Shown here one piece after another: positions 1,431 to 61,011 of a DNA stretch of 64,000 nt. The position numbers and the translations under genes are program-made. The notes under the pieces are model-generated. The model made no database searches and was not told where the DNA came from. It saw only the letters and a list, made by a program, of their open reading frames with translations. This DNA is from an uncultured Planctomycetales bacterium (lineage in GTDB: Bacteria > Planctomycetota > UBA1135), in contig CAYFGE010000001.1 of the NCBI GenBank assembly GCA_964342475.1, forward strand, positions 315,113 through 379,112. Reading direction: 5' to 3'. Every line of letters begins with the position of its first letter. Positions within the stretch are counted from its first letter, which is position 1.

Positions 1431-1436
1431 AAGCTA
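1431..1436 (-). promoter_or_regulatory. -10-like box TAGCTT, 6 nt from the GTG of the esterase gene
   Basis: The plus strand reads aagcta. Spacer gtcgcg, then GTG at 1424. No SD between box and start. Confidence 0.35.
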
Positions 1437-1458
1437 GCGCACCGGCCGCAACGGGCAC

Positions 1459-1490
1459 GACCCTCGCCGGCCCGAGGCCGGACGAGGGTC
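1459..1490. terminator. GC-rich hairpin between the tRNA 3' end and the esterase start
   Basis: gaccctcgccggcc-cga-ggccgg(a)cgagggtc forms a 14-bp stem with one bulge. It starts 6 nt downstream of the minus-strand tRNA 3' end. There is no clear U-tract on the minus strand. Confidence 0.4.
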
Positions 1491-1495
1491 GTTTC

Positions 1496-1572
1496 TGGTA
1501 GCGGAGAAGGGACTCGAACCCCCGACACGCGGATTATGATTCCGCTGCTCTAACCAACTGAGCTACTCCGCC
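1496..1572 (-). tRNA. tRNA with CAU anticodon (Met elongator by default; a lysidine-type Ile2 cannot be excluded by eye)
   Basis: 77-nt cloverleaf on the minus strand: GGCGGAG-TA-GCTC-AGTTGGTTA-GAGC-A-GCGGA-AT CAT AA-TCCGC-GTGTC-GGGGG-TTCGAGT-CCCTT-CTCCGCT-ACCA. The anticodon stem (G29 G30 A31) lacks the three G-C pairs of an initiator. CCA is encoded. Confidence 0.85.
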
Positions 1573-1628
1573 GTTCGCCGCGCCGGAGCCCGGCGAAGGG
1601 GCGGAGATTCTACCGCCGGTCGCGGCTT

Positions 1629-1961
1629 CTATCCACCCCCACCGTCGAGCAGCAGGTCCACGCCGCGCTCGGCCCAGGCCAGCAGCAGGCAGCCCTCCGG
1701 CCCGGCGCTCGGGGCGTGCGCCGTCCCCTCGGCGTAGCGCAGGAAGCTGCCCGCCGGGTAGCTGCCCTCGGCGTCGCGGTAGCCGCCGCGGATCACGAAG
1801 ACCTCCTCGACGCCGCGGTGGCGGTGCGGCGGGTAGGCCGCGCCGGGCCCCATCTCGATCAGCACCCGGACGCTGCCGTCCTCGCGGTGCTCGAGGAAGG
1901 CCAGCCGCAGGCCCGCGATCGAGGTCGTCTTCCAGACCAGGTTCGGATAGGGAGGCTCCAC
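1629..1961 (-). CDS. Cupin-domain protein
   Basis: 110-aa ORF with a two-motif cupin signature: ...YPPHRHRGVEEVFVIRGGYRD...GSFLRYAEGTAHAP.... GTG start. Confidence 0.7.
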   Translation of the reverse strand: MEPPYPNLVWKTTSIAGLRLAFLEHREDGSVRVLIEMGPGAAYPPHRHRGVEEVFVIRGGYRDAEGSYPAGSFLRYAEGTAHAPSAGPEGCLLLAWAERGVDLLLDGGGG

Positions 1962-1967
1962 GGCCCC

Positions 1968-1973
1968 AGCCTA
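1968..1973 (-). promoter_or_regulatory. -10-like box TAGGCT, 6 nt from the GTG of the cupin gene
   Basis: The plus strand reads agccta. A 6-nt spacer precedes the start at 1961. Confidence 0.35.
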
Positions 1974-2006
1974 GTCCCCGAGTCGCGGCCGGTCTCGCCT
2001 CCGTCC

Positions 2007-2012
2007 TAGAAT
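2007..2012 (+). promoter_or_regulatory. -10-like box TAGAAT, 6 nt from the ATG of the TlpA-like gene
   Basis: tcc-TAGAAT-cccccc-ATG (2019). Confidence 0.5.
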
Positions 2013-2018
2013 CCCCCC

Positions 2019-3101
2019 ATGCAGCTGCGTCGCCCCGCCCCGCTCCTCGCCCTGCTCCTGGCCGCCGCCCCCGCCGCGGCCCAGGTCGTCGACGAGCCCG
2101 CGCCGCCCCCTCGCCCCGCCCCCCCTGCCGGCGGCGAGGTCCAGGTCGACGAGGCCCGCGAGCAGGCCGCCCTGGAGGAGATCAACGCCTACGCCGAGGC
2201 CAACCAGATCCCGCCGCCGAAGGAGCAGGCGGAGGCCGAGCGGCACTTCACCGCCTTCCGCGACGGACTCCTGGCCCTGGAGAAGAAGCACCACGGCACC
2301 TGGGCCGCGTGGCAGGCGCTGATGACCGTCGGCCAGATCGAGTCGCGCATCTTCCGCGACCGCCAGGCCAGCGTGAGCTCCTACCGCCGCGTCTGGCAGG
2401 GCGTCCGGCTGCGCACGGACACCCCGCCGCAGGGCATCTTCCTCAACGTGCCGCGGGTGGCGATGCGCTTCGCCGAGGAGCTCATGCGGATCGACCAGCT
2501 CGACGAGGCCGAGGTCGTGCTGCGCGAGGTGGCCGGCACCGAGCTGCCCGAGGGCGAGCGCATCCGCGAGCGCCTGCGCGAGATCCCCGAGCGGCGCCGC
2601 ATGCTGCCCGGCCAGCCGGCCCCGCTGGTCGAGATGGTGGACACCGCCGGCCGGCCGCAGAACCTCGCCGACCACCGCGGCGACGTCGTCCTGGTGCACT
2701 TCTGGTCGGCCATCCACGGCGGCAGCCTGTCCACCATCCCCCAGGTCAAGGAGCTGCTCGAGCAGCACGCCGCCGCGGGGCTGAAGGTGGTCTCGGTGAA
2801 CACCGACCTCTACGTCACGCGCGAGATCCACGAGCAGATGAAGGCCGCCGGGCAGCGCTTCCTGCCGCGCCTGTTCGACCGCGAGGACCTCGACGAGGCG
2901 GTCGCGCGCCACGGCATGGACTGGCCGGTGGTGTGGGACGGCAAGGGCCTGAACGGCCCGGTGCCCGACGCCTTCACCGTGCGCCAGCTGCCCTCGATCT
3001 ACGTGGTCGGGCGCGACGGCCGCATCGTGATCCGCAACCGCTACAACGAGGACCTGACCGAGGCGGTCGTGCGGGCGCTCGAGGCGCCCCGAGCGGACTA
3101 G
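2019..3101 (+). CDS. Secreted TlpA/thioredoxin-fold protein with a helical N-terminal domain; the CXXC motif is absent
   Basis: Signal peptide MQLRRPAPLLALLLAAAPAAAQ. The C-terminal redoxin-like block reads GDVVLVHFWSAIHGGSLSTIPQVKELLEQHAAAGLKVVSVNTD, where canonical TlpA proteins have FWATWCGPC. Confidence 0.75.
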   Translation: MQLRRPAPLLALLLAAAPAAAQVVDEPAPPPRPAPPAGGEVQVDEAREQAALEEINAYAEANQIPPPKEQAEAERHFTAFRDGLLALEKKHHGTWAAWQALMTVGQIESRIFRDRQASVSSYRRVWQGVRLRTDTPPQGIFLNVPRVAMRFAEELMRIDQLDEAEVVLREVAGTELPEGERIRERLREIPERRRMLPGQPAPLVEMVDTAGRPQNLADHRGDVVLVHFWSAIHGGSLSTIPQVKELLEQHAAAGLKVVSVNTDLYVTREIHEQMKAAGQRFLPRLFDREDLDEAVARHGMDWPVVWDGKGLNGPVPDAFTVRQLPSIYVVGRDGRIVIRNRYNEDLTEAVVRALEAPRAD

Positions 3102-4549
3102 GCCCGCGCCGCGCCGCGCAGCCGCGCGAGGCTGCGCTCGCGGCCGAGCAGGCCGAGGATGTCGCCCACCGGCGGCCCGCCGAGGGTGCCGCTGAGGGCG
3201 GCGCGCAGCGGCTTCATCACCTTGCCCATGCCGAGGCCGAGCTCGGCGGCCAGCTGCTTGGCGAAGGCGTCGAAGTCGGCCGGCGGGAAGTCCCCCGCGC
3301 CGAGCGCCTCGGCCGCGGCGGCCAGCACGCGCGGGGCGTCGGCGTCGGCCAGGGCCGGGGCCGCCTTGGCGTCGGGCTCGGCCCGCTCGCCGCGCAGGAA
3401 GGCGGCCTGCTCCCCCACCTCGGAGTAGAGGCGCAGGCGCTCGCGGAAGGCCGCGGCCAGCCGCTCGACCCAGGCCGGGTCGGTGCCGTCGTCGGCCAGC
3501 CCGGCCTCCTCCAGCCAGGGCAGCAGGCGGCGGGCCAGCTCGCCGGGCCCGGTGCCGCGCAGGTACTCGCCGCAGAGCCAGTGCAGCTTGTCCACGTCGA
3601 AGACCGCGCCGGCCTTGTTGATGCGGCCGAGCTCGAAGGCGGCGACGAGCTGCTCGGGGCGGAAGACGTCGGTCTTGTCGTCGATGGCGAAGCCGAGCAG
3701 GCCGAGGAAGTTGAACATCGCCTCGGGCGGGTAGCCCTTGGCCTCGTAGTCCCCCAGCGCGGTGTCGCCGGTGCGCTTGCTCAGCTTCTTGCCGTCGGCG
3801 CCGAGGATCAGCGGCACGTGGGCGAACTCGGGTTCGGGCAGGCCGAGGGCGCGGCACAGCAGCACCTGCTTGGGCGTGTTGGCGAGGTGCTCCTCGCCGC
3901 GGATCACGTGGCTGATCTCCATCGCCGCGTCGTCGAGGGCGCAGACGAAGTTGTAGGTCGGCATGCCGCCCGAGCGGACCGCCACCCAGTCCTCCACCTC
4001 GCCGCTGCGGAACACCACATCGCCGCGGATGTGGTCGCGCACGACGACCTCCTCGTCGTCCGGCACGGCGAAGCGCAGGACGCAGCTCTCGCCGGCCTCG
4101 GCGCGCCGCGCGGCCTCGGCCCGGTCGAGCCCGCGGCAGGTGCGGTCGTAGCCGATCGCGGCCTGCTTCTCGGCGCGCTGGCGCTCCTTCAGCTCGGCGA
4201 CGCGCTCGGGGCTGCAGAAGCAACGGTAGAGCCAGCCCTCCTCCAGGCCCCGCGCGGCGGCGGCGGCGTAGCGGTCGAGCCGCTGCGACTGGAAGTAGGG
4301 CCCGTGCGCGCCGTCCGCCTCGGGGCCCTCGTCCCAGTCGAGCCCCAGCCAGCGCAGGCTGTCGAGGATCGAGCGCAGCGACTCCTCGCTGTTGCGCTCC
4401 TCGTCAGTGTCCTCGACGCGCAGCACGAAGGCGCCGCCGTGGCGGCGGGCGTAGGCCCAGTTGAACAGGGCCGTGCGCGCCCCGCCGACGTGCAGGCGGC
4501 CGGTCGGGGAGGGCGCGAAGCGGACGCGGATCGGGCGGTCGCTGGACAT
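3098..4549 (-). CDS. gltX: Glutamate--tRNA ligase
   Basis: 483 aa. The N-terminus is RVRFAPSPTGRLHVGGARTALFNWAYARRHGG (HIGH-type motif), and KLSKR (KMSKS-type) is present. Confidence 0.95.
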   Translation of the reverse strand: MSSDRPIRVRFAPSPTGRLHVGGARTALFNWAYARRHGGAFVLRVEDTDEERNSEESLRSILDSLRWLGLDWDEGPEADGAHGPYFQSQRLDRYAAAAARGLEEGWLYRCFCSPERVAELKERQRAEKQAAIGYDRTCRGLDRAEAARRAEAGESCVLRFAVPDDEEVVVRDHIRGDVVFRSGEVEDWVAVRSGGMPTYNFVCALDDAAMEISHVIRGEEHLANTPKQVLLCRALGLPEPEFAHVPLILGADGKKLSKRTGDTALGDYEAKGYPPEAMFNFLGLLGFAIDDKTDVFRPEQLVAAFELGRINKAGAVFDVDKLHWLCGEYLRGTGPGELARRLLPWLEEAGLADDGTDPAWVERLAAAFRERLRLYSEVGEQAAFLRGERAEPDAKAAPALADADAPRVLAAAAEALGAGDFPPADFDAFAKQLAAELGLGMGKVMKPLRAALSGTLGGPPVGDILGLLGRERSLARLRGAARA

Positions 4550-4558
4550 GGACCGGGC

Positions 4559-4564
4559 ATTCTA
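4559..4564 (-). promoter_or_regulatory. -10-like box TAGAAT, 9 nt from the gltX ATG
   Basis: The plus strand reads attcta at 4559-4564. The start codon ends at 4549. Confidence 0.5.
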
Positions 4565-4581
4565 GCCGCGGCCGCGCCGGC

Positions 4582-6246
4582 TCAGCGCTCGGTCAGGACC
4601 GGGGTGAGGTCCTCGTCGAACTCGAGCTCGTAACCCCAGTAGACGTTCTGCCCCTGCCCCGGCGCCAGGCGCAGGCGCCAGCGGTAGACGCCGCGCTCGC
4701 GCTGGTCGCGCAGGTCGGCCTCGTCGCGCAGCGGGTTGGGCCGCAGCTCGACCGGCTTGATCTCGAGGCCGCCGCCGCGCACGACGGGGAGGGCCTCCTC
4801 CACCAGCACGTCGACCGCCCCCAGCGCGGCGGCGCTCAGCTTGAGCTTGGCGCGCCACACGCGGGTGATCGTGGCCGTCGAGCTGAGCAGGCCGGGGTCG
4901 TCGCGCTCGTCGCGCACCACCTCGAGCTCGACCGCCAGGTTCGGGTCGACGCCGAGGTTGAGCGTGGTCGAGTCGCCCGGGCGCAGCACCGGGAAGCGGG
5001 TGTCGCCGAGGTAGTCCGGGCCGAGGAAGATCTTGGCCTGCCCCGGCAGCAGCGGGGTGTCGCCGGTCAGGCGCACCTCGGCGCGCAGGAAGGCGCGGTC
5101 GCTGCGCGAGGGCACCAGGTAGCGCTCGGGGCGCACCTCGAGCGGCACCTCGCGGATGCGGTAGCGGTAGGGTTCGCCGTCGCCGCGGATCGTCTTGCGG
5201 TCGGGCAGCTGGAACAGCGCGCTCAGACCGAGGTCCTGGATCTGCGCCTCGGGGGCCGCGCGGAAGCCCTTGGCCGCCTCGTTGGGCAGGGCCAGGCCCT
5301 CGACCTCGGCGAAGGCCGCGCCGCCGCGGTCGAGCGCGCGCGCGTCCACCGAGGACGGCGTGGCGCGCTGGATCTCGAAGACGCGCAGCGGGACCGGCGG
5401 CGGGTCGAGGCCGACGCTCGGCGTGGAGGTGCTGAGCAGCACCTCGGCGTCGGTCCAGTCCTCGCCGGTGCGCTGGTCGAGCTCGGCGACCAGGCCGACG
5501 GTGACGCCGGTCAGGTCGGGGGCCACGCGCACGTCGTAGGTCGGCCGCCAGCGCGCGCCGCCGATCAGGTAGCTGGCGCGCAGCTCGACGCGCCCGGCGC
5601 GCTCGGCCCACACCTGGATGCGGCCGAGGTGGTAGCGGCGCAGGGGCGCGCCGTTCTCGCCGCCGAGCTCCTCGCGGACCCCGGCGATGCGCTGCTCGAG
5701 TTCGGCCACGGCGGCCTCGAGGGCGGCCAGCTCGCGGTCCAGCTCGGCGCTGCGCTCGCGCACGAAGCCGAACAGGGCGTCGAGGGCGGTGCCGTCGACG
5801 GCCGACTCGAGGATGCGGGCGCCGCCGTCGGGCGTGGCCAGCGAGGCGATCACCGAGGCCACCATCTGCTGGCCGGCCTCGATCGAGGCGCGCTCGGCGT
5901 CGAGGTCGCGGCGCTCGGCCAGCATCTCGGCCAGGCGGGCGCGCAGCTGGTCGCGCTGGCCGCGGTCGAGGGCGTCGCCCGTCACGATGCGCGTCTCCAC
6001 GCCCTGGATCACGGCCTGGCCGGCCTCGACCTTGGTCTGGAAGGAGCTGGTGTCCAGTCCGAGCGGCAGCGGGCCGATCTCGACCGTCATCGGGCCGGGC
6101 TCGTCCGCCTCCACGGCGAAGGTGCGCTCGACCAGGGCCTGGGCGGCATAGACCGTGACCCGGTCGAGGCGGGTCGAGGCCGGGACCACCGGCTGCTCCT
6201 GAGGAGCGGCGGCGGCGGCGAGGACGGCGACAGCGGTGAAAAGCAT
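4582..6246 (-). CDS. Secreted DUF4139/MuiA-like (mucoidy-inhibitor family) protein
   Basis: 554 aa with a signal peptide and a central coiled-coil (LAALEAAVAELEQRIAGV). The C-terminal block ...GQAKIFLGPDYLGDTRFPVLRPGDSTTLNLGVD... is typical of DUF4139, assigned from memory. Confidence 0.7.
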   Translation of the reverse strand: MLFTAVAVLAAAAAPQEQPVVPASTRLDRVTVYAAQALVERTFAVEADEPGPMTVEIGPLPLGLDTSSFQTKVEAGQAVIQGVETRIVTGDALDRGQRDQLRARLAEMLAERRDLDAERASIEAGQQMVASVIASLATPDGGARILESAVDGTALDALFGFVRERSAELDRELAALEAAVAELEQRIAGVREELGGENGAPLRRYHLGRIQVWAERAGRVELRASYLIGGARWRPTYDVRVAPDLTGVTVGLVAELDQRTGEDWTDAEVLLSTSTPSVGLDPPPVPLRVFEIQRATPSSVDARALDRGGAAFAEVEGLALPNEAAKGFRAAPEAQIQDLGLSALFQLPDRKTIRGDGEPYRYRIREVPLEVRPERYLVPSRSDRAFLRAEVRLTGDTPLLPGQAKIFLGPDYLGDTRFPVLRPGDSTTLNLGVDPNLAVELEVVRDERDDPGLLSSTATITRVWRAKLKLSAAALGAVDVLVEEALPVVRGGGLEIKPVELRPNPLRDEADLRDQRERGVYRWRLRLAPGQGQNVYWGYELEFDEDLTPVLTER

Positions 6247-6288
6247 GGAGGTGCTCCGGAGGTGGTCCCGCGGGACCGCGGAGGGGCT

Positions 6289-6294
6289 ATTCTA
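6289..6294 (-). promoter_or_regulatory. -10-like box TAGAAT, 42 nt upstream of the DUF4139 gene (leadered, with a GGAG SD)
   Basis: The plus strand reads attcta. The leader contains the 14-nt palindrome ggtcccgcgggacc and a GGAG 7 nt before the ATG (6246). Confidence 0.4.
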
Positions 6295-6345
6295 GGCCCC
6301 TTGCGGCCCCCCGCCTCCCCCGCGGGAGAGGGCCGGTCCCGCGCG

Positions 6346-7692
6346 ATGGAACCCGTCCCCGTGGTCGGCGCCGGCCTGGCCGGCTCGGAGGCCGCCTGGC
6401 AGCTGGCCGAGGCCGGCATCCCCGTGCGCCTGCACGAGATGCGGCCGGTGGTCCCGACGCCGGCCCACGAGACCGACCGCTGCGCCGAGCTGGTGTGCAG
6501 CAACTCGCTGGGCAGCCGCCTGCCCGACCGCGCCGGCGGCGTGCTCCAGGCCGAGCTGCGCGCGATGGGCTGCCGCCTGCTCGAGCTGGCCGAGGCCACC
6601 TCCGTCCCGGCCGGCCAGGCGCTGGCGGTGGACCGCCTGGCCTTCGCCGCCGCGGTGACCGAGGCGGTCGAGGCCCACCCGCGCATCGAGCTCGTGCGCG
6701 GCGAGGTGCCGGCGGTGCCGGAGGGCCCGGCGGTGATCGCCAGCGGGCCGCTGACCAGCGAGGCCCTCGCCGCCGACCTCGCCCGCCTGGCCGGGTCCGA
6801 ACACCTCGCCTTCTTCGACGCCATCGCCCCGGTGGTGACCGCCGACAGCCTCGACCGGGAGGTGGTCTTCGCCGCCTCGCGCTGGGGCCGCGGCGAGGGC
6901 GACGACTACCTCAACGTGCCGCTCGAGAAGGAGCACTACGAGGCCCTGGTGGACGGCCTGCTCGGCGCCGAGCGCCACGAGCTGAAGGACTTCGAGGCCG
7001 CCGACCCGCGCGCCGCGCGCTTCTTCGAGCGCTGCCTGCCGGTCGAGGTGCTGGCCGCGCGCGGCCGCGACGCCCTGCGCTACGGCCCGCTGCGCCCGGT
7101 CGGCCTCGACGACCCGCGCACCGGCCGCTGGCCCTACGCCGTGATCCAGCTGCGTGCCGAGAACCGCGGGGCGACGCTGTTCAACCTGGTCGGCTTCCAG
7201 ACCAACCTGCGCTACCCCGAGCAGGAGCGCCTGCTGCGCGCGCTGCCCGGCATGGCCGGGGCCGAGTTCGTGCGCCTCGGCAGCATGCACCGCAACACCT
7301 TCCTGTGCTCCCCGCGCGTGCTCGACGCCACCCTCGAGTGGCGCGAGCGGCCCGGCCTCTACGTCGCCGGCCAGCTGACCGGCATGGAGGGCTACCTCGG
7401 CAACATCGGCTCCGGCCTGCTGGCCGGGCGCAACCTGGTCCGCCGCCTGCGCGGCCAGGAGCCCGAGGTCCTGCCGCGCAAGACCCTGCTCGGGTCCCTG
7501 GCCCTCCACGTGGCCGAGGCCCCGGCCGAGTCCTTCCAGCCGATGAAGGCCGAGTTCGGCCTGCTACCCTCTCTGCCCGGCCGCGTGCGCCGGGACCAGC
7601 GCAAGCGCGCCCACGCCGAGCGCTCCGCCCAAGCCCTGCAGGATCACCTGCGCCGACACCCCATGCCCGCCCCCGACCCGGCGGCCGCCTGA
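6346..7692 (+). CDS. trmFO: Methylenetetrahydrofolate--tRNA-(uracil-5-)-methyltransferase
   Basis: The internal ATG of track ORF 5629..7692 gives MEPVPVVGAGLAGSEAAWQLAEAGIPVRLHEMRP...CAELVCSNSLGS, a FAD Rossmann fold with the TrmFO/Gid signature. The upstream extension is a low-complexity shadow frame. Confidence 0.9.
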   Translation: MEPVPVVGAGLAGSEAAWQLAEAGIPVRLHEMRPVVPTPAHETDRCAELVCSNSLGSRLPDRAGGVLQAELRAMGCRLLELAEATSVPAGQALAVDRLAFAAAVTEAVEAHPRIELVRGEVPAVPEGPAVIASGPLTSEALAADLARLAGSEHLAFFDAIAPVVTADSLDREVVFAASRWGRGEGDDYLNVPLEKEHYEALVDGLLGAERHELKDFEAADPRAARFFERCLPVEVLAARGRDALRYGPLRPVGLDDPRTGRWPYAVIQLRAENRGATLFNLVGFQTNLRYPEQERLLRALPGMAGAEFVRLGSMHRNTFLCSPRVLDATLEWRERPGLYVAGQLTGMEGYLGNIGSGLLAGRNLVRRLRGQEPEVLPRKTLLGSLALHVAEAPAESFQPMKAEFGLLPSLPGRVRRDQRKRAHAERSAQALQDHLRRHPMPAPDPAAA

Positions 7693-7696
7693 GACC

Positions 7697-9268
7697 ATGC
7701 TCCAGTCCACTCTCGAGATCACCCCCTTCCAGAACGAGCCCTTCACCGACTTCTCCGCCGAGGAGAACGCCAAGGCCTTCCAGGAGTCGCTCGCCAAGGT
7801 CGAGGCCTCCTTCCCCGTCGTCGTGCGCAGCTGGATCGACGGCGACGAGGGCGAGGGCGGCTCCGGCACCTTCGAGTCGGTCGACCCGAGCCAGGTCTCG
7901 CGCGTCGTCGCCAACTCGGCCAAGTGCAGCCGCGACGACGCCCTGCGCGCCGTGGTCGGCGCCCACAAGGCCTTCGGCGAGTGGTCGCGCAAGACGCCCG
8001 AGCAGCGCGCCGAGTACCTGTTCCAGGCCGCGCGCCTGATGCGCCTGCGCAAGCACGACTTCTCGGCCATGATGGTCTACGAGGTCGGCAAGAGCTGGGC
8101 CGAGGCCGACGGCGACACCGCCGAGGCGATCGACTTCCTCGAGTTCTACGCCCGCGAGGCGATGCGCTACGGCGGCCCGCAGCCGATCACCCCGCACCCG
8201 GTCGAGAAGAACGAGATGATCTACGTGCCGCTCGGCGTCGGCGCGGTCATCCCGCCGTGGAACTTCCCGCTGGCCATCCTGGTCGGCATGACCACCGCGG
8301 CGCTGGTCACCGGCAACACCGTGGTGCTCAAGCCGAGCAGCGACAGCCCCGGCATCGCCTCGATGTTCGTCGACCTGATGAAGGAGGTCGGCATCCCGGC
8401 CGGCGTGCTGCAGTTCGTCCCCGGCAGCGGCGGCGAGGTCGGCAACACCATCGTCGAGCACCCGCTGATCCGCTTCATCAGCTTCACCGGCTCGGCCGAG
8501 GTCGGAATGGGCATCTACGAGAAGGCGGGCAAGGTCGCCGAGGGCCAGATCTGGCTCAAGCGCGTGGTCGCCGAGATGGGCGGCAAGGACTTCATGTTCA
8601 TCGACGAGGACGCCGACCTCGACGCCGCGGCGCAGGCCACCCACGCCGCCGCCTTCGGCTTCCAGGGCCAGAAGTGCTCGGCCTGCTCGCGCCTGATCCT
8701 GCACGAGAAGATCCACGACGCCTTCATGGAGAAGTTCCTGCCGCTGGTCGAGGCCACCACGATGGGCCACCCGAGCGACGCCAAGAACTTCCTCGGCGGC
8801 ATGATCAACGAGAAGGCCCGCCAGGGCGCGCTCGACGGCATCGCCAAGGGCAAGGAGGAGGGCAACACCCTCGTGGCCGGCGGCGAGGTCGGCGAGGAGG
8901 GCGGCTGGTACCTGCAGCCGACCGTGTTCACCGGCGTGAAGCGCAGCGACCACCTGTTCCGCGAGGAGCTGTTCGCCCCGGTCCTGGCCGTCCACCAGGT
9001 CGCCAGCTTCGAGGAGGGCATCGAGGCCGCCAACGACACGATCTTCGGCCTGACCGGCAGCTACTTCGGCCGCGACGAGGAGAAGATCGCCACCGCGCGC
9101 CGCGAGCTGTTCTGCGGCAACCTCTACATCAACCGCAAGTGCACCGGCGCGCTGGTCGGGGTCAACCCCTTCGGCGGCTTCAACATGTCGGGCACCGACT
9201 CGAAGGCCGGCGGCCGGGACTACCTGCTCCTGTTCCTGCAGGCCAAGTCGATCAGCCGGCTGAAGTGA
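7697..9268 (+). CDS. pruA: L-glutamate gamma-semialdehyde (1-pyrroline-5-carboxylate) dehydrogenase
   Basis: 523-aa aldehyde dehydrogenase with ...VAEMGGKDFMFID... and ...GFQGQKCSACSRL.... The N-terminus ITPFQNEPFTDF is typical of the RocA/PruA type. Confidence 0.9.
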   Translation: MLQSTLEITPFQNEPFTDFSAEENAKAFQESLAKVEASFPVVVRSWIDGDEGEGGSGTFESVDPSQVSRVVANSAKCSRDDALRAVVGAHKAFGEWSRKTPEQRAEYLFQAARLMRLRKHDFSAMMVYEVGKSWAEADGDTAEAIDFLEFYAREAMRYGGPQPITPHPVEKNEMIYVPLGVGAVIPPWNFPLAILVGMTTAALVTGNTVVLKPSSDSPGIASMFVDLMKEVGIPAGVLQFVPGSGGEVGNTIVEHPLIRFISFTGSAEVGMGIYEKAGKVAEGQIWLKRVVAEMGGKDFMFIDEDADLDAAAQATHAAAFGFQGQKCSACSRLILHEKIHDAFMEKFLPLVEATTMGHPSDAKNFLGGMINEKARQGALDGIAKGKEEGNTLVAGGEVGEEGGWYLQPTVFTGVKRSDHLFREELFAPVLAVHQVASFEEGIEAANDTIFGLTGSYFGRDEEKIATARRELFCGNLYINRKCTGALVGVNPFGGFNMSGTDSKAGGRDYLLLFLQAKSISRLK

Positions 9269-9285
9269 GCCCCGCGGGGGCCGCA

Positions 9286-9318
9286 GGCGGGCGGGGGCGC
9301 GGCGCGCTCCCGCCCGCC
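9286..9318 (+). terminator. GC hairpin downstream of pruA
   Basis: ggcgggcgggggcgc-ggc-gcgctcccgcccgcc has 15-nt arms with one mismatch. It begins 18 nt after the pruA stop and sits directly upstream of the TAGACT box of the next gene. No U-tract. Confidence 0.4.
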
Positions 9319-9330
9319 GCGCGCTCCGGC

Positions 9331-9336
9331 TAGACT
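9331..9336 (+). promoter_or_regulatory. -10-like box TAGACT, 6 nt from the ATG of the NapF-like gene
   Basis: ggc-TAGACT-cctgcc-ATG (9343). Confidence 0.45.
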
Positions 9337-9342
9337 CCTGCC

Positions 9343-9960
9343 ATGGCCGAGGAGCCGCTCGACCGCCGCGCCTTCTTCCGACGCGGCCTGCGCACGCTGC
9401 TCGACACCGTCAGCGAGACGGTGAAGGCCACGCGCGGCCTCGGCGGAGGCCGCCCCGCGCCCGCCCCGCTGCGGCGGCTGCGCCCGCCCGGCGCCCTGCC
9501 GGAGGCCGACTTCCTCGCCGCCTGCACGCGCTGCGACGACTGCGTCAGCGCCTGCCCGGCGGCCTGCATCGTGCGCGTGCCGGCCGGCGAGCCCGACGCC
9601 GGCACCCCGGTCATCGTGCCCGACGCCCGCGCCTGCGTGCTGTGCTCCGGCCTGAACTGCACCCGGGTGTGCGAGCCCGGCGCGCTGCGCCCGCTGCACG
9701 CCCCGGAGCAGGTCCGCATCGGCGTCGCGGCGGTCGACCGCGACCTGTGCTACCCGTGGATCGGCAGCTACTGCTCCGCCTGCCTGTCGATCTGTCCGAC
9801 CGAGCCGAAGGCCATCGTGGTCGACGAGCAGCAGCGGCCGGGCGTGGACACCGCGCTGTGCACCGGCTGCGGCCTGTGCGAAGAGCGTTGCCCCACCGTG
9901 CCGCGCGCCGTCACCATCCAGGTCGTCGACCGTCTCCTCCCCCGCCCCGCCGCGAGCTGA
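9343..9960 (+). CDS. NapF-like 4Fe-4S ferredoxin-type protein
   Basis: 205 aa. It has an RRAFFRRG Tat-like motif followed by four Cys clusters: CTRCDDCVSACP, CVLCSGLNCTRVCEP, CYPWIGSYCSACLSICP and CTGCGLCEERCP. The layout resembles E. coli NapF, recalled from memory. Confidence 0.75.
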   Translation: MAEEPLDRRAFFRRGLRTLLDTVSETVKATRGLGGGRPAPAPLRRLRPPGALPEADFLAACTRCDDCVSACPAACIVRVPAGEPDAGTPVIVPDARACVLCSGLNCTRVCEPGALRPLHAPEQVRIGVAAVDRDLCYPWIGSYCSACLSICPTEPKAIVVDEQQRPGVDTALCTGCGLCEERCPTVPRAVTIQVVDRLLPRPAAS

Positions 9961-9963
9961 CCC

Positions 9964-10761
9964 GTGTCGCAGAACAGCCGCCGCATCGAGCCCGTCCCCG
10001 AGCACTTCGACCCCGACGAGGTCTTCGACCCGCAGCGCGAGGCGCGCCCGGTGCTCGCGCTCTGGCTCCTGGTCGGTCCGCTGCTCGGCGCGGTCGGCAC
10101 CGTCGGCTGGCTGCGCCTCGTCGCCGGGGTGCCTCTGCCGCTTCCGGACGAGCTCGACGGCGGGGCGCTGCTCGTGGACACCCTGCTGCTCCTCCTCTTC
10201 GTCGTCCCCCACTCGCTGCTGGCGCGCGGCTCGGGGCGGGTGCTGCTCAACCGGCCCTTCGGCCCGAGCGGCGAGCGCCCGCTCTACGTGTTGGTGGCCG
10301 GCGTGACCCTCAGCCTGCTCGTGCTCGGCTGGCGCACCACGGGGCCGGTGCTGTGGGACTACGACGGCGCGGCCAAGATCGCCGCCCGCGGGGTGCAGGC
10401 GCTAGGCCTGCTGCTCGCCACCTGGGCCACGCTGCTCACCGGCGCCGGGCGGATGCTCGGCCTGCCCCACCTGCGCGCGCTCGAGAACGGCACCCAGCCG
10501 CCCTCGCGCGAGCTGATCGCCCTGCCGCCCTACCGCTGGGTGCGCCAGCCGGTGAACCTCGGCTTCCTGCTCATGATGGCGGCGATGCCGGAGGGCACCC
10601 CCGACCGGCTGCTGCTCGCCGTGGGCTTCGGCCTGTGGATCCTGGTCAGCGTGCCCTTCGAGGAGCGCGACCACGAGCCGACCTTCGGCAAGGCCTACCT
10701 GCAGTACCGCGGCCGCACGCCGCGCTGGATCCCGCGCTTCCGCGCCCGCGACGAGGAGTGA
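9964..10761 (+). CDS. ICMT/PEMT-superfamily (MddA-like) membrane methyltransferase
   Basis: 265-aa multi-TM protein with the C-terminal signature ...YRWVRQPVNLGFLLMMAAM...FEERDHEPTFGKAYLQYRGRTPRWIP. It starts at a GTG 3 nt after the ferredoxin stop. Confidence 0.65.
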   Translation: MSQNSRRIEPVPEHFDPDEVFDPQREARPVLALWLLVGPLLGAVGTVGWLRLVAGVPLPLPDELDGGALLVDTLLLLLFVVPHSLLARGSGRVLLNRPFGPSGERPLYVLVAGVTLSLLVLGWRTTGPVLWDYDGAAKIAARGVQALGLLLATWATLLTGAGRMLGLPHLRALENGTQPPSRELIALPPYRWVRQPVNLGFLLMMAAMPEGTPDRLLLAVGFGLWILVSVPFEERDHEPTFGKAYLQYRGRTPRWIPRFRARDEE

Positions 10762-14429: not shown

Positions 14430-14830
14430 CCCTCGAGCGGGACCGCGGTCAGGAACATCCAGCCGGCGGTGGCCACGGCGAGCACGACGAGGACCACGAA
14501 GCCGGCCACCCAGCGGCGGTGCACCGGGCGCGCGACGCGGCCGCGCGCGAGGCCGACCCCGGACCAGGCGACGCCCGGCAGCGCGCCGAGGGCGGCGAAG
14601 GCGAAGCCGAGGTGGACGTTCAGACGCATCGCGTCGAACTCGAAGCCGCGGCCGAACAGCTCGGCCTGCACGATGGCCAGCAGCAGCGCGACCGTGGTCG
14701 CGGCGACCAGCGTGTAGTGGAGGCGGCGGCGGCCGGCCCGTCCGCTGGCGAGGGTGAGGGCCAGCAGGGCGACGGTGACGGCCAGGTTGGCGAGGAACAG
14801 CGGACCGGACAAGGGGCGGCAGAATACCAT
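14426..14830 (-). CDS. Small hypothetical membrane protein (about 4 TM helices)
   Basis: This is the C-terminal 134 codons of track ORF 14426..16780. Codon-position-3 G/C is high only downstream of ATG 14830. It has hydrophobic helices (LFLANLAVTVALLALTLA, HYTLVAATTVALLLAIV, VHLGFAFAALGALPGVAW, VAGFVVLVVLAVATAGWMF). I recognise no family. Confidence 0.5.
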   Translation of the reverse strand: MVFCRPLSGPLFLANLAVTVALLALTLASGRAGRRRLHYTLVAATTVALLLAIVQAELFGRGFEFDAMRLNVHLGFAFAALGALPGVAWSGVGLARGRVARPVHRRWVAGFVVLVVLAVATAGWMFLTAVPLEG

Positions 14831-14836
14831 CCGCTC

Positions 14837-19161: not shown

Positions 19162-19183
19162 GGATCCTCCTCCGCCCGCCACC

Positions 19184-46386: not shown

Positions 46387-46392
46387 AGTATA
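46387..46392 (-). promoter_or_regulatory. -10-like box TATACT, 19 nt upstream of the glmU ATG
   Basis: The plus strand reads agtata, in the 73-nt divergent glmU/psd spacer. Confidence 0.35.
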
Positions 46393-46440
46393 GCCGCGCA
46401 GGCAGCGCGCCCCGCGCCGCCCGTATGCTGTGCCCGAACG

Positions 46441-51522: not shown

Positions 51523-53460
<1,938 letters not shown>

Positions 53461-53466
53461 GGTCTC

Positions 53467-53472
53467 AGGATA
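53467..53472 (-). promoter_or_regulatory. -10-like box TATCCT, 6 nt from the ATG of the FHA-sigma54 activator gene
   Basis: The plus strand reads aggata. Spacer ggtctc, start at 53460. It overlaps the opposite-strand box by 2 nt. Confidence 0.4.
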
Positions 53473-53476
53473 AGCT
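53471..53476 (+). promoter_or_regulatory. -10-like box TAAGCT, 7 nt from the GTG of the ykgJ-like gene
   Basis: gga-TAAGCT-ctccgcc-GTG (53484). Confidence 0.35.
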
Positions 53477-53483
53477 CTCCGCC

Positions 53484-53948
53484 GTGACCGCCGCCTCCCC
53501 TTCCCCGCGCCCGTGGTGGGCGGACGGCCTGCCCTTCGCCTGCACCCAGTGCGGCGAGTGCTGCCACGGCCGGGGCGGTTACCAGTACGTCTACGTCAAC
53601 GAGGAGGAGCGGCGGCGCCTCGCGGAGCACCTCGGCCTCGGGCTGGAGGCCTTCCAGGAGCGGTATACCGTGCTCGACGAGGACGGTTACCCCACCCTGC
53701 GCTTCCAGGACGGCCACTGCGTCTTCCTCGACGGCAAGCGCTGCGTGGTGCACGAGGCCAAGCCGGTGCAGTGCCGCACCTGGCCCTTCTGGGTCGAGCT
53801 GCTCGAGGACGAGGAAACCTACCGCCGCGAGGTGCTCGACTTCTGCCCCGGCAGCCGCGGCGGGCCGCTGGTGCCGGCGGCGCGGATCCGGGCGGCGGTC
53901 GAGGAGACCGAGGCCGCCCTCCACGCCGACGAGGAAAGCGGGGACTGA
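53484..53948 (+). CDS. YkgJ-family (CxxCxxCC) cysteine-cluster protein
   Basis: In-frame GTG at 53484 within track ORF 52917..53948. 154 aa: ...FACTQCGECCHGRGGYQYVYVNEEE...CVFLDGKRCVVHEAKPVQCRTWPFW.... Confidence 0.75.
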   Translation: MTAASPSPRPWWADGLPFACTQCGECCHGRGGYQYVYVNEEERRRLAEHLGLGLEAFQERYTVLDEDGYPTLRFQDGHCVFLDGKRCVVHEAKPVQCRTWPFWVELLEDEETYRREVLDFCPGSRGGPLVPAARIRAAVEETEAALHADEESGD

Positions 53949-53984: not shown

Positions 53985-53990
53985 TAGACT
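53985..53990 (+). promoter_or_regulatory. -10-like box TAGACT, 10 nt from the ettA ATG
   Basis: gtgg-TAGACT-ctccgtcctc-ATG (54001). Confidence 0.45.
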
Positions 53991-57705: not shown

Positions 57706-57711
57706 ATTCTA
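57706..57711 (-). promoter_or_regulatory. -10-like box TAGAAT, 9 nt from the ATG of the AlkP-family gene
   Basis: The plus strand reads attcta. The start codon ends at 57696. Confidence 0.5.
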
Positions 57712-57736: not shown

Positions 57737-58522
57737 TCAGCGGCCCTCGAAGGCGGGCGGCCGCTTCTCGGCGAAGGCGGCCAGGGCCTCGAGGCGGTCG
57801 CGGGTCGGCAGGATGCGCTGGTAGCAGGCCGACTCGTGCTCGAGCCCCTCCTCCTCGGTCAGGTCGAGGCTGCCGTCGATGGCCGCCTTGGCGGCGCGCA
57901 GGGCCAGCGGCCCGTTGCGCAGCAGGGCCTCGACCATCTCCTCCCCCGCGCGGCGCGCCCCGCCCGCCTCGGCGGCGAGGTGGACCAGGCCGACGCGCGC
58001 GGCCTCGGCGGCGTCGAGCCGCTGGGCGAGCAGGATGAGCTCCTTCGCCTTGGCTGCGCCGACGAGGCGCGGCAGGCGCACGCAGCCGCCGGCCCCGGGG
58101 ATGATCGCCAGGCTGGTCTCGGTCAGGCCGATGCTCGCCGCGCCGTCGAGCACGCGCAGGTCGCAGGCCAGCGCCATCTCGCAGCCGCCGCCGAAGGCGT
58201 GGCCGTTCATCACCGCCACGGTCGGCTGCGGCAGGGCGGCGACGTCGTCCATCGTGCCGCGGATCTGCCGCACGAACTCCCGCACCTGCTCCTCGCTCAG
58301 CGTGCGCCGCTCCTTGAGGTCAGCGCCGGCGCAGAAGGCGCGGTCGCCCGCCCCGGTGATCGCCACCACCCAGGTCTCGGGATCCTCGCGCAGCTCGGCG
58401 AGCAGGCCGCGCAGGCGCAGCAGCGTGGGCAGGGAGAGGGCGTTGCGCGCCTCCGGCCGGTTCAGGGTGAGCCAAGCCGTGCGGCCGCGGCGCTCGAGGA
58501 GGACGAGGTCTTGGTCGGTCAT
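57737..58522 (-). CDS. Enoyl-CoA hydratase/isomerase family (methylglutaconyl-CoA-hydratase-like)
   Basis: An internal ATG of track ORF 57737..58573 gives 261 aa: ...LTLNRPEARNAL...ITGAGDRAFCAGADLKER...MNGHAFGGGCEMALACD.... Confidence 0.85.
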   Translation of the reverse strand: MTDQDLVLLERRGRTAWLTLNRPEARNALSLPTLLRLRGLLAELREDPETWVVAITGAGDRAFCAGADLKERRTLSEEQVREFVRQIRGTMDDVAALPQPTVAVMNGHAFGGGCEMALACDLRVLDGAASIGLTETSLAIIPGAGGCVRLPRLVGAAKAKELILLAQRLDAAEAARVGLVHLAAEAGGARRAGEEMVEALLRNGPLALRAAKAAIDGSLDLTEEEGLEHESACYQRILPTRDRLEALAAFAEKRPPAFEGR

Positions 58523-58535
58523 CGCTGTCGCGGCG

Positions 58536-59411
58536 TCACGCCGAGGTCCGGGCGCGCGCCAGGGATTCTCCAAGGTAACGGGTCGCCTCGCCGAGGGCGC
58601 CGCCGTCGAGCGGGAACTCGGCCCCTTCCTCGCGCAGCGCGGCGGCCAGGGCGGCCATGTCGAGGTTGCCCTTGGCTCCGGGCGCGAAGGGGCAGCCGCC
58701 CGCCCCGCCGGCGGCGGCGTCGAAGTGGCGCACCCCGAGCTGCCAGGCGCGGCGCGCGTTCTCGGCCGCGTGACCGAAGGTGTCGTGCAGGTGGACGCCG
58801 AGGTGCTCGCCGTCGACCCGCTCGAGGGCGCCGCCGACCAGCTCCTCGACCTGCGCCACGGAGCCGGTGCCGAGGGTGTCCGCCAGGACCAGCACTTCGG
58901 GACCGGCCCCGGCCCAGGCGTCGACCAGCTCCATCACCCACGCCACGGGCGGCGGGCCGTCGAAGGGGCAGCCGAAGGCCATGGAGACGTAGGCGCGCAC
59001 GGGGTGCCCGGCGGCGCGCGCTGCCCGCGCCAGGGCGAGGTTCTCCTCGAGCGCCCCGGCCACCGACATGCCGACGTTCGCCCGGCTGTGGCCCTCGGTC
59101 GAGGAGACGAGCAGGGTCACGCCGTCGAGGCCGGAGGCGAGGAAGCGCTCCATGCCGCGCGCGTTGGCCACCAGGCCGTAGAGCGCCACCCGGTCGCGCC
59201 AGGCGGCGCCGCGCAGACCGGCGCAGACCGCCTCGGCGTCGGCCAGCGGCGGCAGGAGGTCGGGGCGGACGAAGCTCGTGGCCTCGATGGTGTCCGGCCG
59301 CGCGGCAGCGAGCCGCTCGATCAGGGCCAGCTTGTCGGCGGTGGGCAGCACCGCCTTCTCGTTCTGCAGCCCGTCCCGCGGCGCGACCTCGTGCAGGTGC
59401 GCGCGGCTCAC
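58536..59411 (-). CDS. Hydroxymethylglutaryl-CoA lyase
   Basis: GTG at 59411 forms a GTGA overlap with the upstream gene. 291 aa: HEVAPRDGLQNE...IEATSFV...LADTLGTG...GVHLHDTFGHA...FDAAAGGAGGCPFAPGAKGN. Confidence 0.85.
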   Translation of the reverse strand: MSRAHLHEVAPRDGLQNEKAVLPTADKLALIERLAAARPDTIEATSFVRPDLLPPLADAEAVCAGLRGAAWRDRVALYGLVANARGMERFLASGLDGVTLLVSSTEGHSRANVGMSVAGALEENLALARAARAAGHPVRAYVSMAFGCPFDGPPPVAWVMELVDAWAGAGPEVLVLADTLGTGSVAQVEELVGGALERVDGEHLGVHLHDTFGHAAENARRAWQLGVRHFDAAAGGAGGCPFAPGAKGNLDMAALAAALREEGAEFPLDGGALGEATRYLGESLARARTSA

Positions 59412-60142
59412 CGCGGCTTCTCCAGGCACACCATGCCGAAGGTGAAGCGGCGGTCGGGGTGGCGCAGGTCGAGCAGGTGGCGCGCGCCGTCGTCGTGGAA
59501 GCCCGGCTCCCCCACCCAGGCGAGCCCGAGGTGGTCGACCAGCTCGTGCACGGCCGCGGTGTCGCGCAGCGCGCCCTCGCCCGGCGCGTCGCGCCCGAGC
59601 TCGAAGCTGAAGACCATGCGGCCGCCCGGGCGCAGCGCGGCGGCCAGGCGGCGCAGCGCGGCGCGGTGGGCGTCGTGCGGCATGTGCTCGATCACGCAGA
59701 AGCTGGTGACCAGGTCGAGCGAGCAGTCCGGCGGCAGCTCCGCGGTGGTCAGGTCGACGGTGCTGGCCTCGAGCTTCCAGCCGAAGCGGCGCGCCGCGCG
59801 CTGGCTGCGCTCGACCAGGTCGGCGTCGATGTCGTGGACCCGGACGCGGGCGCCGCGCGCGGCCAAGTAGTAGGCCGGCAGGGTGGCGCCGCCGCCGAAG
59901 TCGAGGACGTCCCGCGCCTCCTCGGCGCGCGCGTGGGCCAGGCCGCAGGCGTACTCCCACATCTTCGGACCGCGCACGTAGAAGCGGCCGTGCGGGATGC
60001 CGTTGACCGCCACCGCCTGCCCGCGGAGGAACATCCGGCGCACGAAGCGCCGCAGGCGCGCCGCCTGCGAGCGCACCGGTTCCCGGCGCAGGTCGAGGAG
60101 GTCGAGGCTCTTGTGGATCGGCTGCGGGGACGCCGCGCTCAT
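59408..60142 (-). CDS. Class I SAM-dependent methyltransferase
   Basis: An internal ATG of track ORF 59408..60697 gives 244 aa. Motif I is [29 protein letters not shown], followed by ...[13 protein letters not shown].... Confidence 0.75.
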
Positions 60143-60144
60143 GC

Positions 60145-60999
60145 TCAGGGGAACTTCGGCTCGTGCGCGGCGATGCGCGCCTCCTTCTCCGTCACCTCGC
60201 GCGCCCACTGGCGCACCAGCGGGTCGACGCGCGACTTGCACAGGTACTGGAGCAGGAAACGCAGGCGGTCGGCGCGCGTCACCGTGGCGGGCGCGGAGTG
60301 GGCCATCGCGGCCAGGTCCTTGACCAGCCAGCGCCGCCGCGGCGGGAACCGCTGCTCGACGCGCTGCAGGTCGATCAGGTAGGGCCGGCCCCAGCGCTCG
60401 TCCTCGGTGACGACGAAGTGGGCCAGGTAGAGGTCGCGGTGGTAGAAGCCGCTGCTGTGCAGGCGGCGGACGAGGCCGGCCACGTCGCGCACCACGCGGT
60501 CGCGGGCCTGCGCCGCGGTGAGGCCGGGGAAGGCGCCCCAGCCGTCCGCGAGCAGGTGGTCGAGGCGGCGCCCGGGGATCTCGCGCAGGACGAGGAAGCT
60601 CTCGCAGGGGCGGCCGGGGCCGATCGGCGCATCGCCCACCGCCACCATCTCCGGGACGTCGAACCAGGCGCGCCGCAGCAGGCGCAGGTTGTCCCACTCG
60701 CGGTGGCCGGGGCTGCGGCTCGGCAGCAGCCAGCCCAGCCAGCGGTGGCGCAGGTCGGCGCGCGCGTAGGACTTCAGGTAGAGCGCGCCGGCGGGGGTCT
60801 CGATGCGGCGCGTCACCCGCGGCCCGGCCACCCGGACGACCTCGCCCCCGTCGAAGGCCACCGCGCCGGCCACCGTGTCGAGGCCGAGCTCGCGCAGCAC
60901 CTCCTGGTAGGGCTCGGCCGCCAGCACGCGCCCGTGATCCAGCTCGACGATCGGGAGCTGGCGCGGGCGGTAGCGTCGGGCGGCGCGCGGCGCGTCCAT
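60145..60999 (-). CDS. Lipopolysaccharide kinase (WaaP/RfaP/InaA family)
   Basis: An internal ATG of track ORF 60145..62502 gives 284 aa: ...LYLKSYA...REWDNLRLL...[10 protein letters not shown]...[15 protein letters not shown]...YLIDLQRV. The HRDxYxxHF motif matches WaaP from memory. Confidence 0.75.
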
Positions 61000-61005
61000 G
61001 CGCTC

Positions 61006-61011
61006 ATCCTC
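61006..61011 (-). promoter_or_regulatory. -10-like box GAGGAT, 6 nt from the ATG of the LPS-kinase gene
   Basis: The plus strand reads atcctc. Spacer gcgctc, start at 60999. Confidence 0.3.

Follow-up and report, generated by a model that had tools for sequence, protein, structure and literature searches.

Does a short A/T-containing hexamer that stands a few nucleotides in front of start codons in extremely GC-rich DNA mark messengers that lack a leader? The question is raised by a 64-kb stretch of contig CAYFGE010000001.1 from an uncultured Planctomycetales bacterium (hereafter the window; GC 72-78% throughout). A preliminary description of its letters listed 16 TAGAAT-like boxes, placed 6 to 11 nucleotides (nt) upstream of start codons, as -10 elements of leaderless genes. 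All 16 hexamers were found again at their positions and on their strands, and the spacings were re-derived exactly as written. Our analysis indicates that these hexamers are very likely -10 promoter elements, which would produce leaderless messenger RNAs (mRNAs) where six or seven nucleotides separate box and start codon (written N6-N7) and mRNAs with leaders of 2-5 nt where the spacing is N9-N11. The leaderless claim is therefore well supported in silico for the N6-N7 boxes and has to be modified for the N9-N11 boxes.

To place the boxes relative to genes we called the latter with a codon log-odds model trained on the clearest open reading frames (ORFs) of the window, taking the best suffix as coding onset and a score of 25 as threshold. 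A filter on the GC content of third codon positions (GC3) over whole ORFs was dropped in favour of this model because it was too noisy, with spurious long ORFs running across several genes. The start codon of each gene was the ATG, GTG or TTG nearest to the onset of the coding signal, and upstream motifs were ignored in this choice to avoid circularity. The model called 51 genes, with about 2.2 kb (3.5%) of the window non-coding and 61.8 kb (96.5%) coding. An exhaustive scan of both strands of the whole 64 kb found the core motif TANNNT 40 times, 28 times in or at the edge of the non-coding DNA and 12 times inside coding DNA, which corresponds to a density about 65-fold higher outside genes. 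The narrower motif TAGAMT occurs 10 times, with 4.2 occurrences expected overall from dinucleotide shuffles, and is absent from coding DNA. This comparison of hexamers inside and outside genes had been suggested in the preliminary description as a check, and with 10/10 TAGAMT and 28/40 TANNNT outside genes it came out as foreseen there. Non-coding DNA (GC 0.750) is no richer in A/T than coding DNA (GC 0.742), which indicates that the enrichment is not an effect of composition. Fourteen TANNNT boxes lie on the sense strand 5-12 nt upstream of an independently called start. When the 28 non-coding boxes are placed uniformly, the probability of at least 14 falling in this N5-12 slot is P = 3e-11, and TANNNT heads a set of 160 patterns with three fixed A/T letters, standing before 14 genes where the median is 1. 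Finally, 14 of 29 first genes have the motif upstream, compared with none of 21 internal genes (Fisher P = 9e-5).

Alignment of 24 boxes gave the consensus T-A-G-A-A/C-T, in which T1, A2 and T6 are essentially invariant (hence the core TANNNT) and position 3 prefers G (15/24). The -10 part of a canonical sigma-70 promoter is thus present, and the TTGACA-like hexamer expected 16-18 nt upstream is not: across the 24 aligned boxes there is no information at -35, and neither a -35 element nor an extended -10 was found. The same hexamer also precedes an untranslated gene. TAGAAT at 1607-1612 (-) precedes the mature 5' end of tRNA-Met (1496-1572) by 34 nt, together with a -35-like TGGATA at 1630-1635 and a 17-nt spacer, and this is the only two-hexamer (-35/-10) match in positions 1-20000 of the window. 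The motif therefore acts without a translated gene. Its restriction to first genes, its presence before tRNA-Met and further boxes 17-52 nt upstream of other starts together argue for a promoter and not for a ribosome-binding motif.

The gene labels of the preliminary description were borne out by Pfam and NCBIfam, with matches in the first half of the window to SASA esterase, cupin, AhpC/TSA, gltX, 4Fe-4S, amidohydrolase, aminotransferase, HEAT and trmB, and in the second half to psd, FHA-GAF sigma-54 activator, CxxCxxCC protein, ettA, phosphodiesterase and Kdo kinase. The commonest spacing in the window is N6, and among the TANNNT boxes eight lie at N6-N7 and six at N8-N11. Seven genes have their box at N6 and are predicted to be leaderless. 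TAGCTT (1431-1436, -) precedes GTG 1424 of the SASA-type esterase gene (3-1424), where the TAG of the box is the in-frame stop that bounds the ORF and GTG 1424 is the sole start candidate. TAGGCT (1968-1973, -) precedes GTG 1961 of a ChrR-like cupin gene, whose ortholog in one relative (locus L040) reads CAGAAT-N6-ATG. TAGAAT (2007-2012, +) precedes ATG 2019 of the AhpC/TSA-redoxin gene, TAGACT (9331-9336, +) ATG 9343 of the 4Fe-4S protein gene, and TAGACT (23095-23100, -) GTG 23088 of the HEAT-repeat gene, previously labelled AlkD-like. The gene for a 1429-aa amidohydrolase-domain protein had been listed as a weak case with CAGAAT at N11; its box is instead TACCAT (14825-14830, +) at N6 to ATG 14837, and it is kept as TAMCAT (TAACAT or TACCAT) at N6-N8 in three relatives (L039, L041 and L043). 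The seventh is TATCCT (53467-53472, -), N6 to ATG 53460 of the FHA-GAF sigma-54 activator gene. The eighth gene of the class, coding for the CxxCxxCC protein (previously ykgJ-like), has TAAGCT (53471-53476, +) at N7 to GTG 53484. The last two genes are divergent, with starts only 23 nt apart (53460-53484) and -10 boxes that overlap by 2 nt, so that the two promoters should compete for RNA polymerase.

Every start in the N6-N7 class is ATG or GTG, and a transcription start there would consequently land on a purine. The single TTG case is probably mis-called. In this case TATTCT (14821-14826, -) stands at N8 to TTG 14812 of a 128-aa gene (14426-14812), an ambiguous arrangement that we set aside, ATG 14830 being the more likely start and the hexamer then falling inside coding sequence. 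In relatives the position of TTG 14812 is CTG and an in-frame ATG lies 9 codons upstream. With TACCAT of the amidohydrolase gene this hexamer forms a back-to-back pair (14821-14830) similar to that at the sigma-54 activator gene, and the orthologous start codons in L039 overlap as CATG.

Five genes carry the box at N9-N11. TAGAAT (4559-4564, -) lies at N9 to ATG 4549 of gltX, with a predicted leader of about 2-3 nt, and TAGAAT (57706-57711, -) at N9 to ATG 57696 of a gene of the type I phosphodiesterase family, previously called AlkP-family. TAGACT (53985-53990, +) lies at N10 to ATG 54001 of ettA (predicted leader about 3-4 nt) and TATGCT (46424-46429, +) at N11 to GTG 46441 of psd (predicted leader about 4-5 nt). 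The fifth is TAGACT (25655-25660, +), at N11 to GTG 25672 of a 123-aa ORF (25672-26043) that we call the CCCE ORF. The gene model missed this ORF, whose codon score of 20.4 is just below the calling threshold of 25; its GC3 is 0.93. The product begins with a signal-peptide-like stretch, contains two CCCE motifs and matches no Pfam family. The ORF lies directly upstream of a CusC/CusB/CusA-like heavy-metal resistance-nodulation-division (RND) efflux operon at 26133-33061 (OEP, HlyD with HMBD, and ACR_tran), beyond which a YHS-domain protein is encoded at 33136-33885. The CCCE product is a candidate periplasmic metal-binding partner.

Two listed boxes are variants with G at position 1. GAGAAT (25577-25582, -), N9 to ATG 25567 of trmB, is the weaker case. 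GAGGAT (61006-61011, -), N6 to ATG 60999 of a Kdo/WaaP-family kinase gene, recurs as GACGAT-N7 in L002 and as GAAGAT-N6 in L009 and L022. For the aminotransferase gene the preliminary description gave TAGAAT-N7-GTG. Hexamer (20602-20607, +) and spacing are right, and the start may be GTG 20615 (N7), GTG 20621 (N13) or GTG 20642 (N34): the coding signal begins at 20639 and the NCBIfam profiles are compatible with either start.

The strongest independent evidence for the boxes is their conservation. Relatives were taken as loci (L001 and so on) from a species-representative genome collection and cover mostly the same two syntenic regions. Although protein identity among the relatives ranges over 51-94% and GC over 48-75%, and although the flanks have diverged, several boxes stay in place. 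The TATCCT of the sigma-54 activator gene stands at N6 (some at N7, one at N10) in most of 20 relatives (51-83% identity); L012, L014 and L016 differ, and low-GC genomes read TATCCT-TACAGT-ATG. The ettA box is TAGACT, TAGAAT or TACAAT at N9-N12 in 18 relatives of 48-73% GC. That of gltX is TAGAAT, TAAACT or TAAAAT at N9-N12 in L033, L035, L036, L038 and L040, being kept wherever gltX is not fused into the upstream operon. The boxes of the CxxCxxCC gene and of the phosphodiesterase gene (TAGAAT) are conserved in L001-L003, and psd has the same arrangement in L003, with TACACT farther upstream in more distant relatives. Orthologs also differ in state. The enoyl-CoA hydratase gene is internal in the window and is preceded by TAAACT, TACAAT or TACGAT at N6-N8 in L009, L016, L019 and L022; the DUF4139 gene, leadered in the window (N42), reads TAGAAT-N6/N8-ATG in L039 and L041. 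These alignments suggest that genes can switch between an adjacent-box state and a leadered or internal state.

Since each spacing depends on the start codon, we also asked how reliable the called starts are. Public gene calls on two contigs in the European Nucleotide Archive (ENA), which encode identical proteins, give the same four lengths (645, 154, 563 and 662 aa) and agree on where the sigma-54 activator and CxxCxxCC genes start; this protein set is present in ENA assemblies ERZ930063 and ERZ930069 (PRJEB17505). Matches to full-length NCBIfam profiles set in at residues 4-8 of gltX, ettA, glmU and dnaB (TIGR00464 at gltX residue 7, the EttA profile at ettA residue 8), and ortholog alignments extend to residue 1.

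How many transcription units use an adjacent box? According to the preliminary description nearly every one did, which goes too far. A clear adjacent box stands before 13 of about 30 candidate first genes; together with four doubtful cases, 2 with ambiguous starts and 2 with G at box position 1, this is about half of the units. A further 7 have the box farther upstream and 6 have none within 60 nt; these six may be co-transcribed with the preceding gene. Adjacent boxes make up half to two-thirds of the recognisable promoters. To follow the spacing beyond the window we pooled it with 33 loci of the clade. A histogram over ettA-linked loci was dropped because repeated orthologs dominate it and are not independent, and the spacing was therefore redone with family weighting, each protein family being counted once. 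The resulting 91 first-gene families show a sharp peak at N6 and a broad shoulder at N9-N13; a box at N5-N13 is present in about 25% of these families and in almost no internal genes. In 44 control loci from other lineages the same pipeline found a box at N5-8 in 9% of 436 first genes, compared with about a third of first genes in the window, which indicates that the pipeline does not create the spacing peak. We further observed that many control loci, for instance L044-L049 and other gltX loci of unrelated lineages, have exactly one first gene with TANNNT at N5-8. This single gene may be gltX itself, in which case gltX may be leaderless in other lineages too.

The seven first genes with a distant box (17-52 nt upstream) are the DUF4139, GIDA-family, dnaB, glmU and gdh genes and two genes of unknown function. 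TAGAAT at 6289-6294 (-) lies at N42 to ATG 6246 of a DUF4139/4140 protein, and TATTCT at 6288-6293 (+) at N52 to ATG 6346 of a GIDA-family protein; both genes are leadered and their divergent boxes overlap (6288-6294). TAGGAT at 19156-19161 (+) stands at N22 to ATG 19184 of a protein of unknown function and leaves a short C-rich leader without a Shine-Dalgarno (SD) sequence, and TAGGAT at 23181-23186 (+) stands at N33 to TTG 23220 of an unknown 462-aa protein with a C/T-rich leader. For dnaB the box is TATCCT at 41516-41521 (-), N17 to ATG 41498, with a leader of about 10 nt. For glmU it is TATACT at 46387-46392 (-), N19 to ATG 46367, with a leader of about 12 nt lacking an SD; this box is conserved in 13/13 relatives at roughly N10-N19. 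Glutamate dehydrogenase (gdh) is leadered from TAACCT at 61088-61093 (+), N50 to ATG 61144, with GGGAG before the start; TAACCT, TATCCT or TACGCT lies at a similar distance in L002, L003 and L019. TACCCT at N10 (61128-61133) was rejected as a leaderless box of gdh because it is not conserved. GGAG-type sites occur in the leaders of the DUF4139, GIDA-family and gdh genes. One further box lies within a gene. TACAAT at 44271-44276 (-) is located inside prs (44153-45106), 154 nt upstream of the L25/ctc start at 44116, in a patch (44265-44295, -) that is rich in A/T although GC3 in prs is about 0.93. All 13 clade orthologs of 48-75% GC share the codons GTT-TCN-AAT-ACA-AT (V-S-N-T-I/M) to the nucleotide, synonymous sites included, and the patch supplies 4 of the 12 coding TANNNT matches. 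It is probably an internal promoter for rplY-pth.

We next considered the sequences around the starts. The SD 4-mer core was found in 38% of internal genes (8/21), 31% of other first genes (4/13) and 23% of the adjacent-box class, against a background of 19%, and strong SDs are few (duplex energy <= -9.5 kcal/mol in five genes). The absence of an SD between box and start, which the preliminary description had noted, is accordingly uninformative, SD use being weak in all gene classes. Its statement that internal genes use GGAG-type SDs or overlapping codons holds for the 11/21 that overlap the upstream gene and, as regards SDs, for only 8/21, with 19% expected by chance. We therefore discarded the SD as a discriminator, since it separates the gene classes only weakly. 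Codons 2-11 of all gene classes are rich in C (0.47-0.50) and poor in G (0.24-0.26) relative to gene bodies (C 0.38, G 0.36), and a number of leaders, rich in C and T, contain CCTCC in place of GGAGG. Over the first 45 nt the folding energy is -11.6 kcal/mol, compared with -16.3 kcal/mol in gene bodies (about 4.6 less stable); all classes are alike in this, and the folding energy was rejected as a mark of leaderless genes because it is not specific to them. An Rfam scan of the window for leader RNAs or riboswitches found only tRNA-Met, and the window holds no 16S rRNA.

Together, these data suggest the following mechanism. The boxes would be -10 elements of housekeeping sigma-70-type promoters, most of them without a recognisable -35, in a very compact genome of 75% GC. 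RNA polymerase would start some 6-7 nt downstream of the final T, and a box at N6-N7 would thus give an mRNA that begins at the start codon, as predicted for the esterase, cupin, AhpC/TSA, 4Fe-4S, amidohydrolase, HEAT, sigma-54 activator and CxxCxxCC genes and probably for the Kdo kinase gene. Ribosome and initiator tRNA would bind the 5' AUG or GUG of such an mRNA directly. From a box at N9-N11 (gltX, ettA, phosphodiesterase, psd, the CCCE ORF and perhaps trmB) the mRNA would carry a leader of 2-5 nt, too short for an SD. The remaining units would be transcribed from the same box at 17-52 nt or together with the gene before them. Positions, enrichment, restriction to first genes and conservation of the boxes are observations, from which we infer transcription starts and mode of translation.

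Several points weigh against this mechanism. Each transcription start is placed by the distance that usually separates it from the box. Given its predicted leaders of 2-5 nt, the N9-N11 class is leaderless only in a loose sense; leaderless translation in E. coli already drops when a few nucleotides precede the start codon. In five N6 boxes the initial TAG is in frame with the start and at the same time bounds the ORF, which ties the called start to the box to some degree; no such tie exists for the conserved orthologs or for the cases at N7, N8, N10 and N11. Additional upstream promoters may yield leadered transcripts of the same genes. A genome-wide fraction of leaderless genes is an extrapolation from 64 kb and mostly two syntenic regions. 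Lastly, a small N6-N7 peak is also seen in the control loci from other lineages, which fits the wide, low-level occurrence of leaderless genes reported before (PMC3160421).

Could the hexamers be something other than promoters that set the 5' end of the mRNA? They might be non-SD ribosome-binding or translation-enhancer motifs inside longer leaders transcribed from further upstream, as in the 'group B' Bacteroidota. The weak SD use in every class (23-38%) calls for some other initiation signal, the regions around starts are C-rich, G-poor and weakly folded, and one survey lists Planctomycetes with the phyla of low SD use, their signal being ambiguous ('leaderless and/or S1'; PMC5397173). A motif read by the ribosome is expected before internal operon genes as well, however, and was seen before 0/21 of them, which is exactly the criterion by which GeneMarkS-2 separates group B from group C (PMC6028130). 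The invariant positions T1, A2 and T6 are moreover those of a -10 element, and the hexamer also stands before a tRNA gene and 17-52 nt from other starts, so that we regard a ribosome-binding role as distinctly improbable. Simple chance, helped by selection of cases, is harder still to credit. It would require A/T-richer intergenic DNA, a stop such as TAG upstream of every ORF and some start codon always nearby; by an estimate from base composition, ATG, GTG or TTG indeed falls in any 8-nt slot about 20% of the time at 75% GC, five N6 boxes begin with an in-frame TAG and two listed cases need G at position 1. Intergenic DNA has no A/T excess, though, the starts were called blind to the motif, and the placement probability and the rank of TANNNT given above speak against coincidence. 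In such a genome the chance stop would presumably be TGA rather than TAG, and relatives keep boxes also where the spacing cannot be divided by three. The coding/non-coding scan, the placement test and the comparison of first with internal genes led us to reject chance.

A less distant alternative accepts the boxes as real -10 elements and holds that many of the genes are nevertheless leadered, either because the true starts lie downstream or because the boxes are minor or condition-specific promoters beside main ones farther upstream. The aminotransferase gene, with three possible GTG starts (N7, N13, N34) between which the profiles do not decide, and the 128-aa gene at 14426-14812, which probably starts at a codon other than the one nearest the box, show how this could arise; at gdh it is the box at N50 and not that at N10 that is conserved, and orthologs of the DUF4139 gene and psd swap adjacent and distant boxes. 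In most cases, on the other hand, the coding signal begins at the called codon with an in-frame stop just upstream, and the ortholog alignments, profile N-termini and public gene calls back the called starts. With intergenic gaps of 23-57 nt, moreover, a second promoter would hardly fit unless it lay in the neighbouring gene. We consider this alternative unlikely, and favour -10 elements that produce leaderless or nearly leaderless mRNAs.

Which organism carries this arrangement? Out of 23 close ettA loci, 20 bear the label Planctomycetota or Planctomycetales, on which ground we rejected an origin in Myxococcota (Anaeromyxobacter) that the 75% GC and the sigma-54 activator had suggested. At the ettA locus L001-L003 match the window with 88-94% protein identity and have 71-73% GC, and about 18 further ettA loci have 74-81% identity at 48-62% GC, one of them being 'Planctomycetes bacterium UBA1135'. 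By these similarities the organism is a high-GC member of an uncultured planctomycete clade. L012 (JBLINB010000068.1) comes from a metagenome-assembled genome (MAG) labelled Myxococcota. Its ettA locus (48% GC) can hardly be told from those of L007-L009, L011 and L022 in the low-GC Planctomycetota group, promoter region included, which suggests that the bin is probably mislabelled or contaminated. Matches in Pfam and NCBIfam show that BamA, Skp, LpxC-FabZ and LpxA are encoded in the window, a set that, judged by these matches, fits a diderm that makes lipopolysaccharide (LPS). At 35768-37057 (-) one 429-aa protein joins LpxC (residues 5-271) to a FabA/FabZ-like dehydratase (residues 298-419), and this fusion gene clusters with those for BamA, Skp and LpxA. 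The preliminary description found the leaderless pattern notable in an organism encoding LPS and BamA functions. This is less remarkable than it seemed, the pattern having already been predicted in some Proteobacteria, Acidobacteria and Aquificae.

If the leaderless reading is true, a lineage of the Planctomycetes-Verrucomicrobia-Chlamydiae (PVC) superphylum joins the taxa with abundant leaderless genes. In such genomes gene finders that assume SD sites misplace starts, and a rule based on an adjacent -10 box would fix many GTG and ATG starts and mark operon boundaries in uncultured MAGs. Combined with the weak SD use, the pattern would offer a case in which to study SD-independent initiation outside Actinobacteria and Deinococcus. 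The persistence of single boxes over 48-75% GC, one of them in prs against the codon bias, points to strong selection on the A/T positions of -10 elements in extreme-GC genomes. A wider proposal, in our view about as apt to fail as to hold and perhaps slightly more so, is that a largely marine, uncultured clade of Planctomycetota (48-75% GC, including the MAG UBA1135) represents an unrecognised leaderless PVC lineage. About half of its units would have -10-only (TAGAMT) promoters abutting the start, beside a conserved class with leaders of about 3-6 nt (ettA, gltX), and 5'-end-dependent, SD-independent initiation would be the main mode in an LPS-making diderm.

The architecture itself is already known elsewhere; what is added here is a planctomycete lineage that probably carries it, and no new mechanism is involved. 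In the literature we found no experimental study of start sites and no explicit prediction of leaderless genes for Planctomycetes, except for one ambiguous low-SD genome (PMC5397173). The main texts of PMC6028130 and PMC3160421 contain no statement on Planctomycetes that we could find, their supplementary genome lists being outside this search. The closest experimental counterpart is Deinococcus. De Groot et al. (2014, PMC4007540) give 47% as the share of D. deserti mRNAs that start exactly at the start codon and 60% as the share that start at or near it, and in the '-10-motif' promoters of this genus the -10 alone suffices, the -35 being an optional enhancer (Zhong et al. 2025, PMC12340547). 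The window resembles Deinococcus in its TANNNT directly upstream of ORFs, its -10-only promoters and a predicted share of about half of the transcripts. It differs in that the Deinococcus pattern has been validated by experiment and that of the window is known from sequence, in belonging to the PVC superphylum with BamA and Lpx genes, and in favouring G at box position 3. In Streptomyces the -10 consensus, TAG(Pu)(Pu)T, is similar to the TAGAMT of the window, and a 5' AUG or GUG is all that leaderless translation requires in mycobacteria. The leaderless mRNAs of mycobacteria and Streptomyces (Cortes et al. 2013, PMC3898074, and related papers) combine high GC, a TANNNT -10, a poorly conserved -35 and a 5'-terminal AUG or GUG, features that the window shares, the last of them by prediction. 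Unlike the window, where SD use in internal genes is only about twice background, Actinobacteria are Gram-positive and have clear SDs on leadered and internal genes.

With group B of GeneMarkS-2 (mostly members of the Fibrobacteres-Chlorobi-Bacteroidetes (FCB) group, PMC6028130) the window shares low SD use and an A/T-containing motif near starts. The group B motif precedes all genes, internal ones included, whereas that of the window precedes only first genes and a tRNA gene, so that the window is not a member. Group C is defined by a Pribnow box 6-8 nt from the starts of first genes, typically in 25-50% of operons, and comprises 90% of Actinobacteria and 97% of Deinococcus-Thermus, with Proteobacteria as rare carriers (PMC6028130). 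Zheng et al. (2011, PMC3160421) likewise took a TANNNT about 10 bp ahead of the start as the sign of a leaderless ('TA-led') gene; leaderless genes exceed 20% in Actinobacteria and Deinococcus-Thermus, with smaller shares in Acidobacteria, Aquificae and delta-Proteobacteria. The window has the location of the box, its occurrence before first and not internal genes and the predicted 5' AUG or GUG in common with these two classes, and its TANNNT is weak in the three middle positions as in other high-GC genomes. Where it departs from group C is in the additional conserved class at N9-N13 that its clade shows beside the sharp peak at N6.

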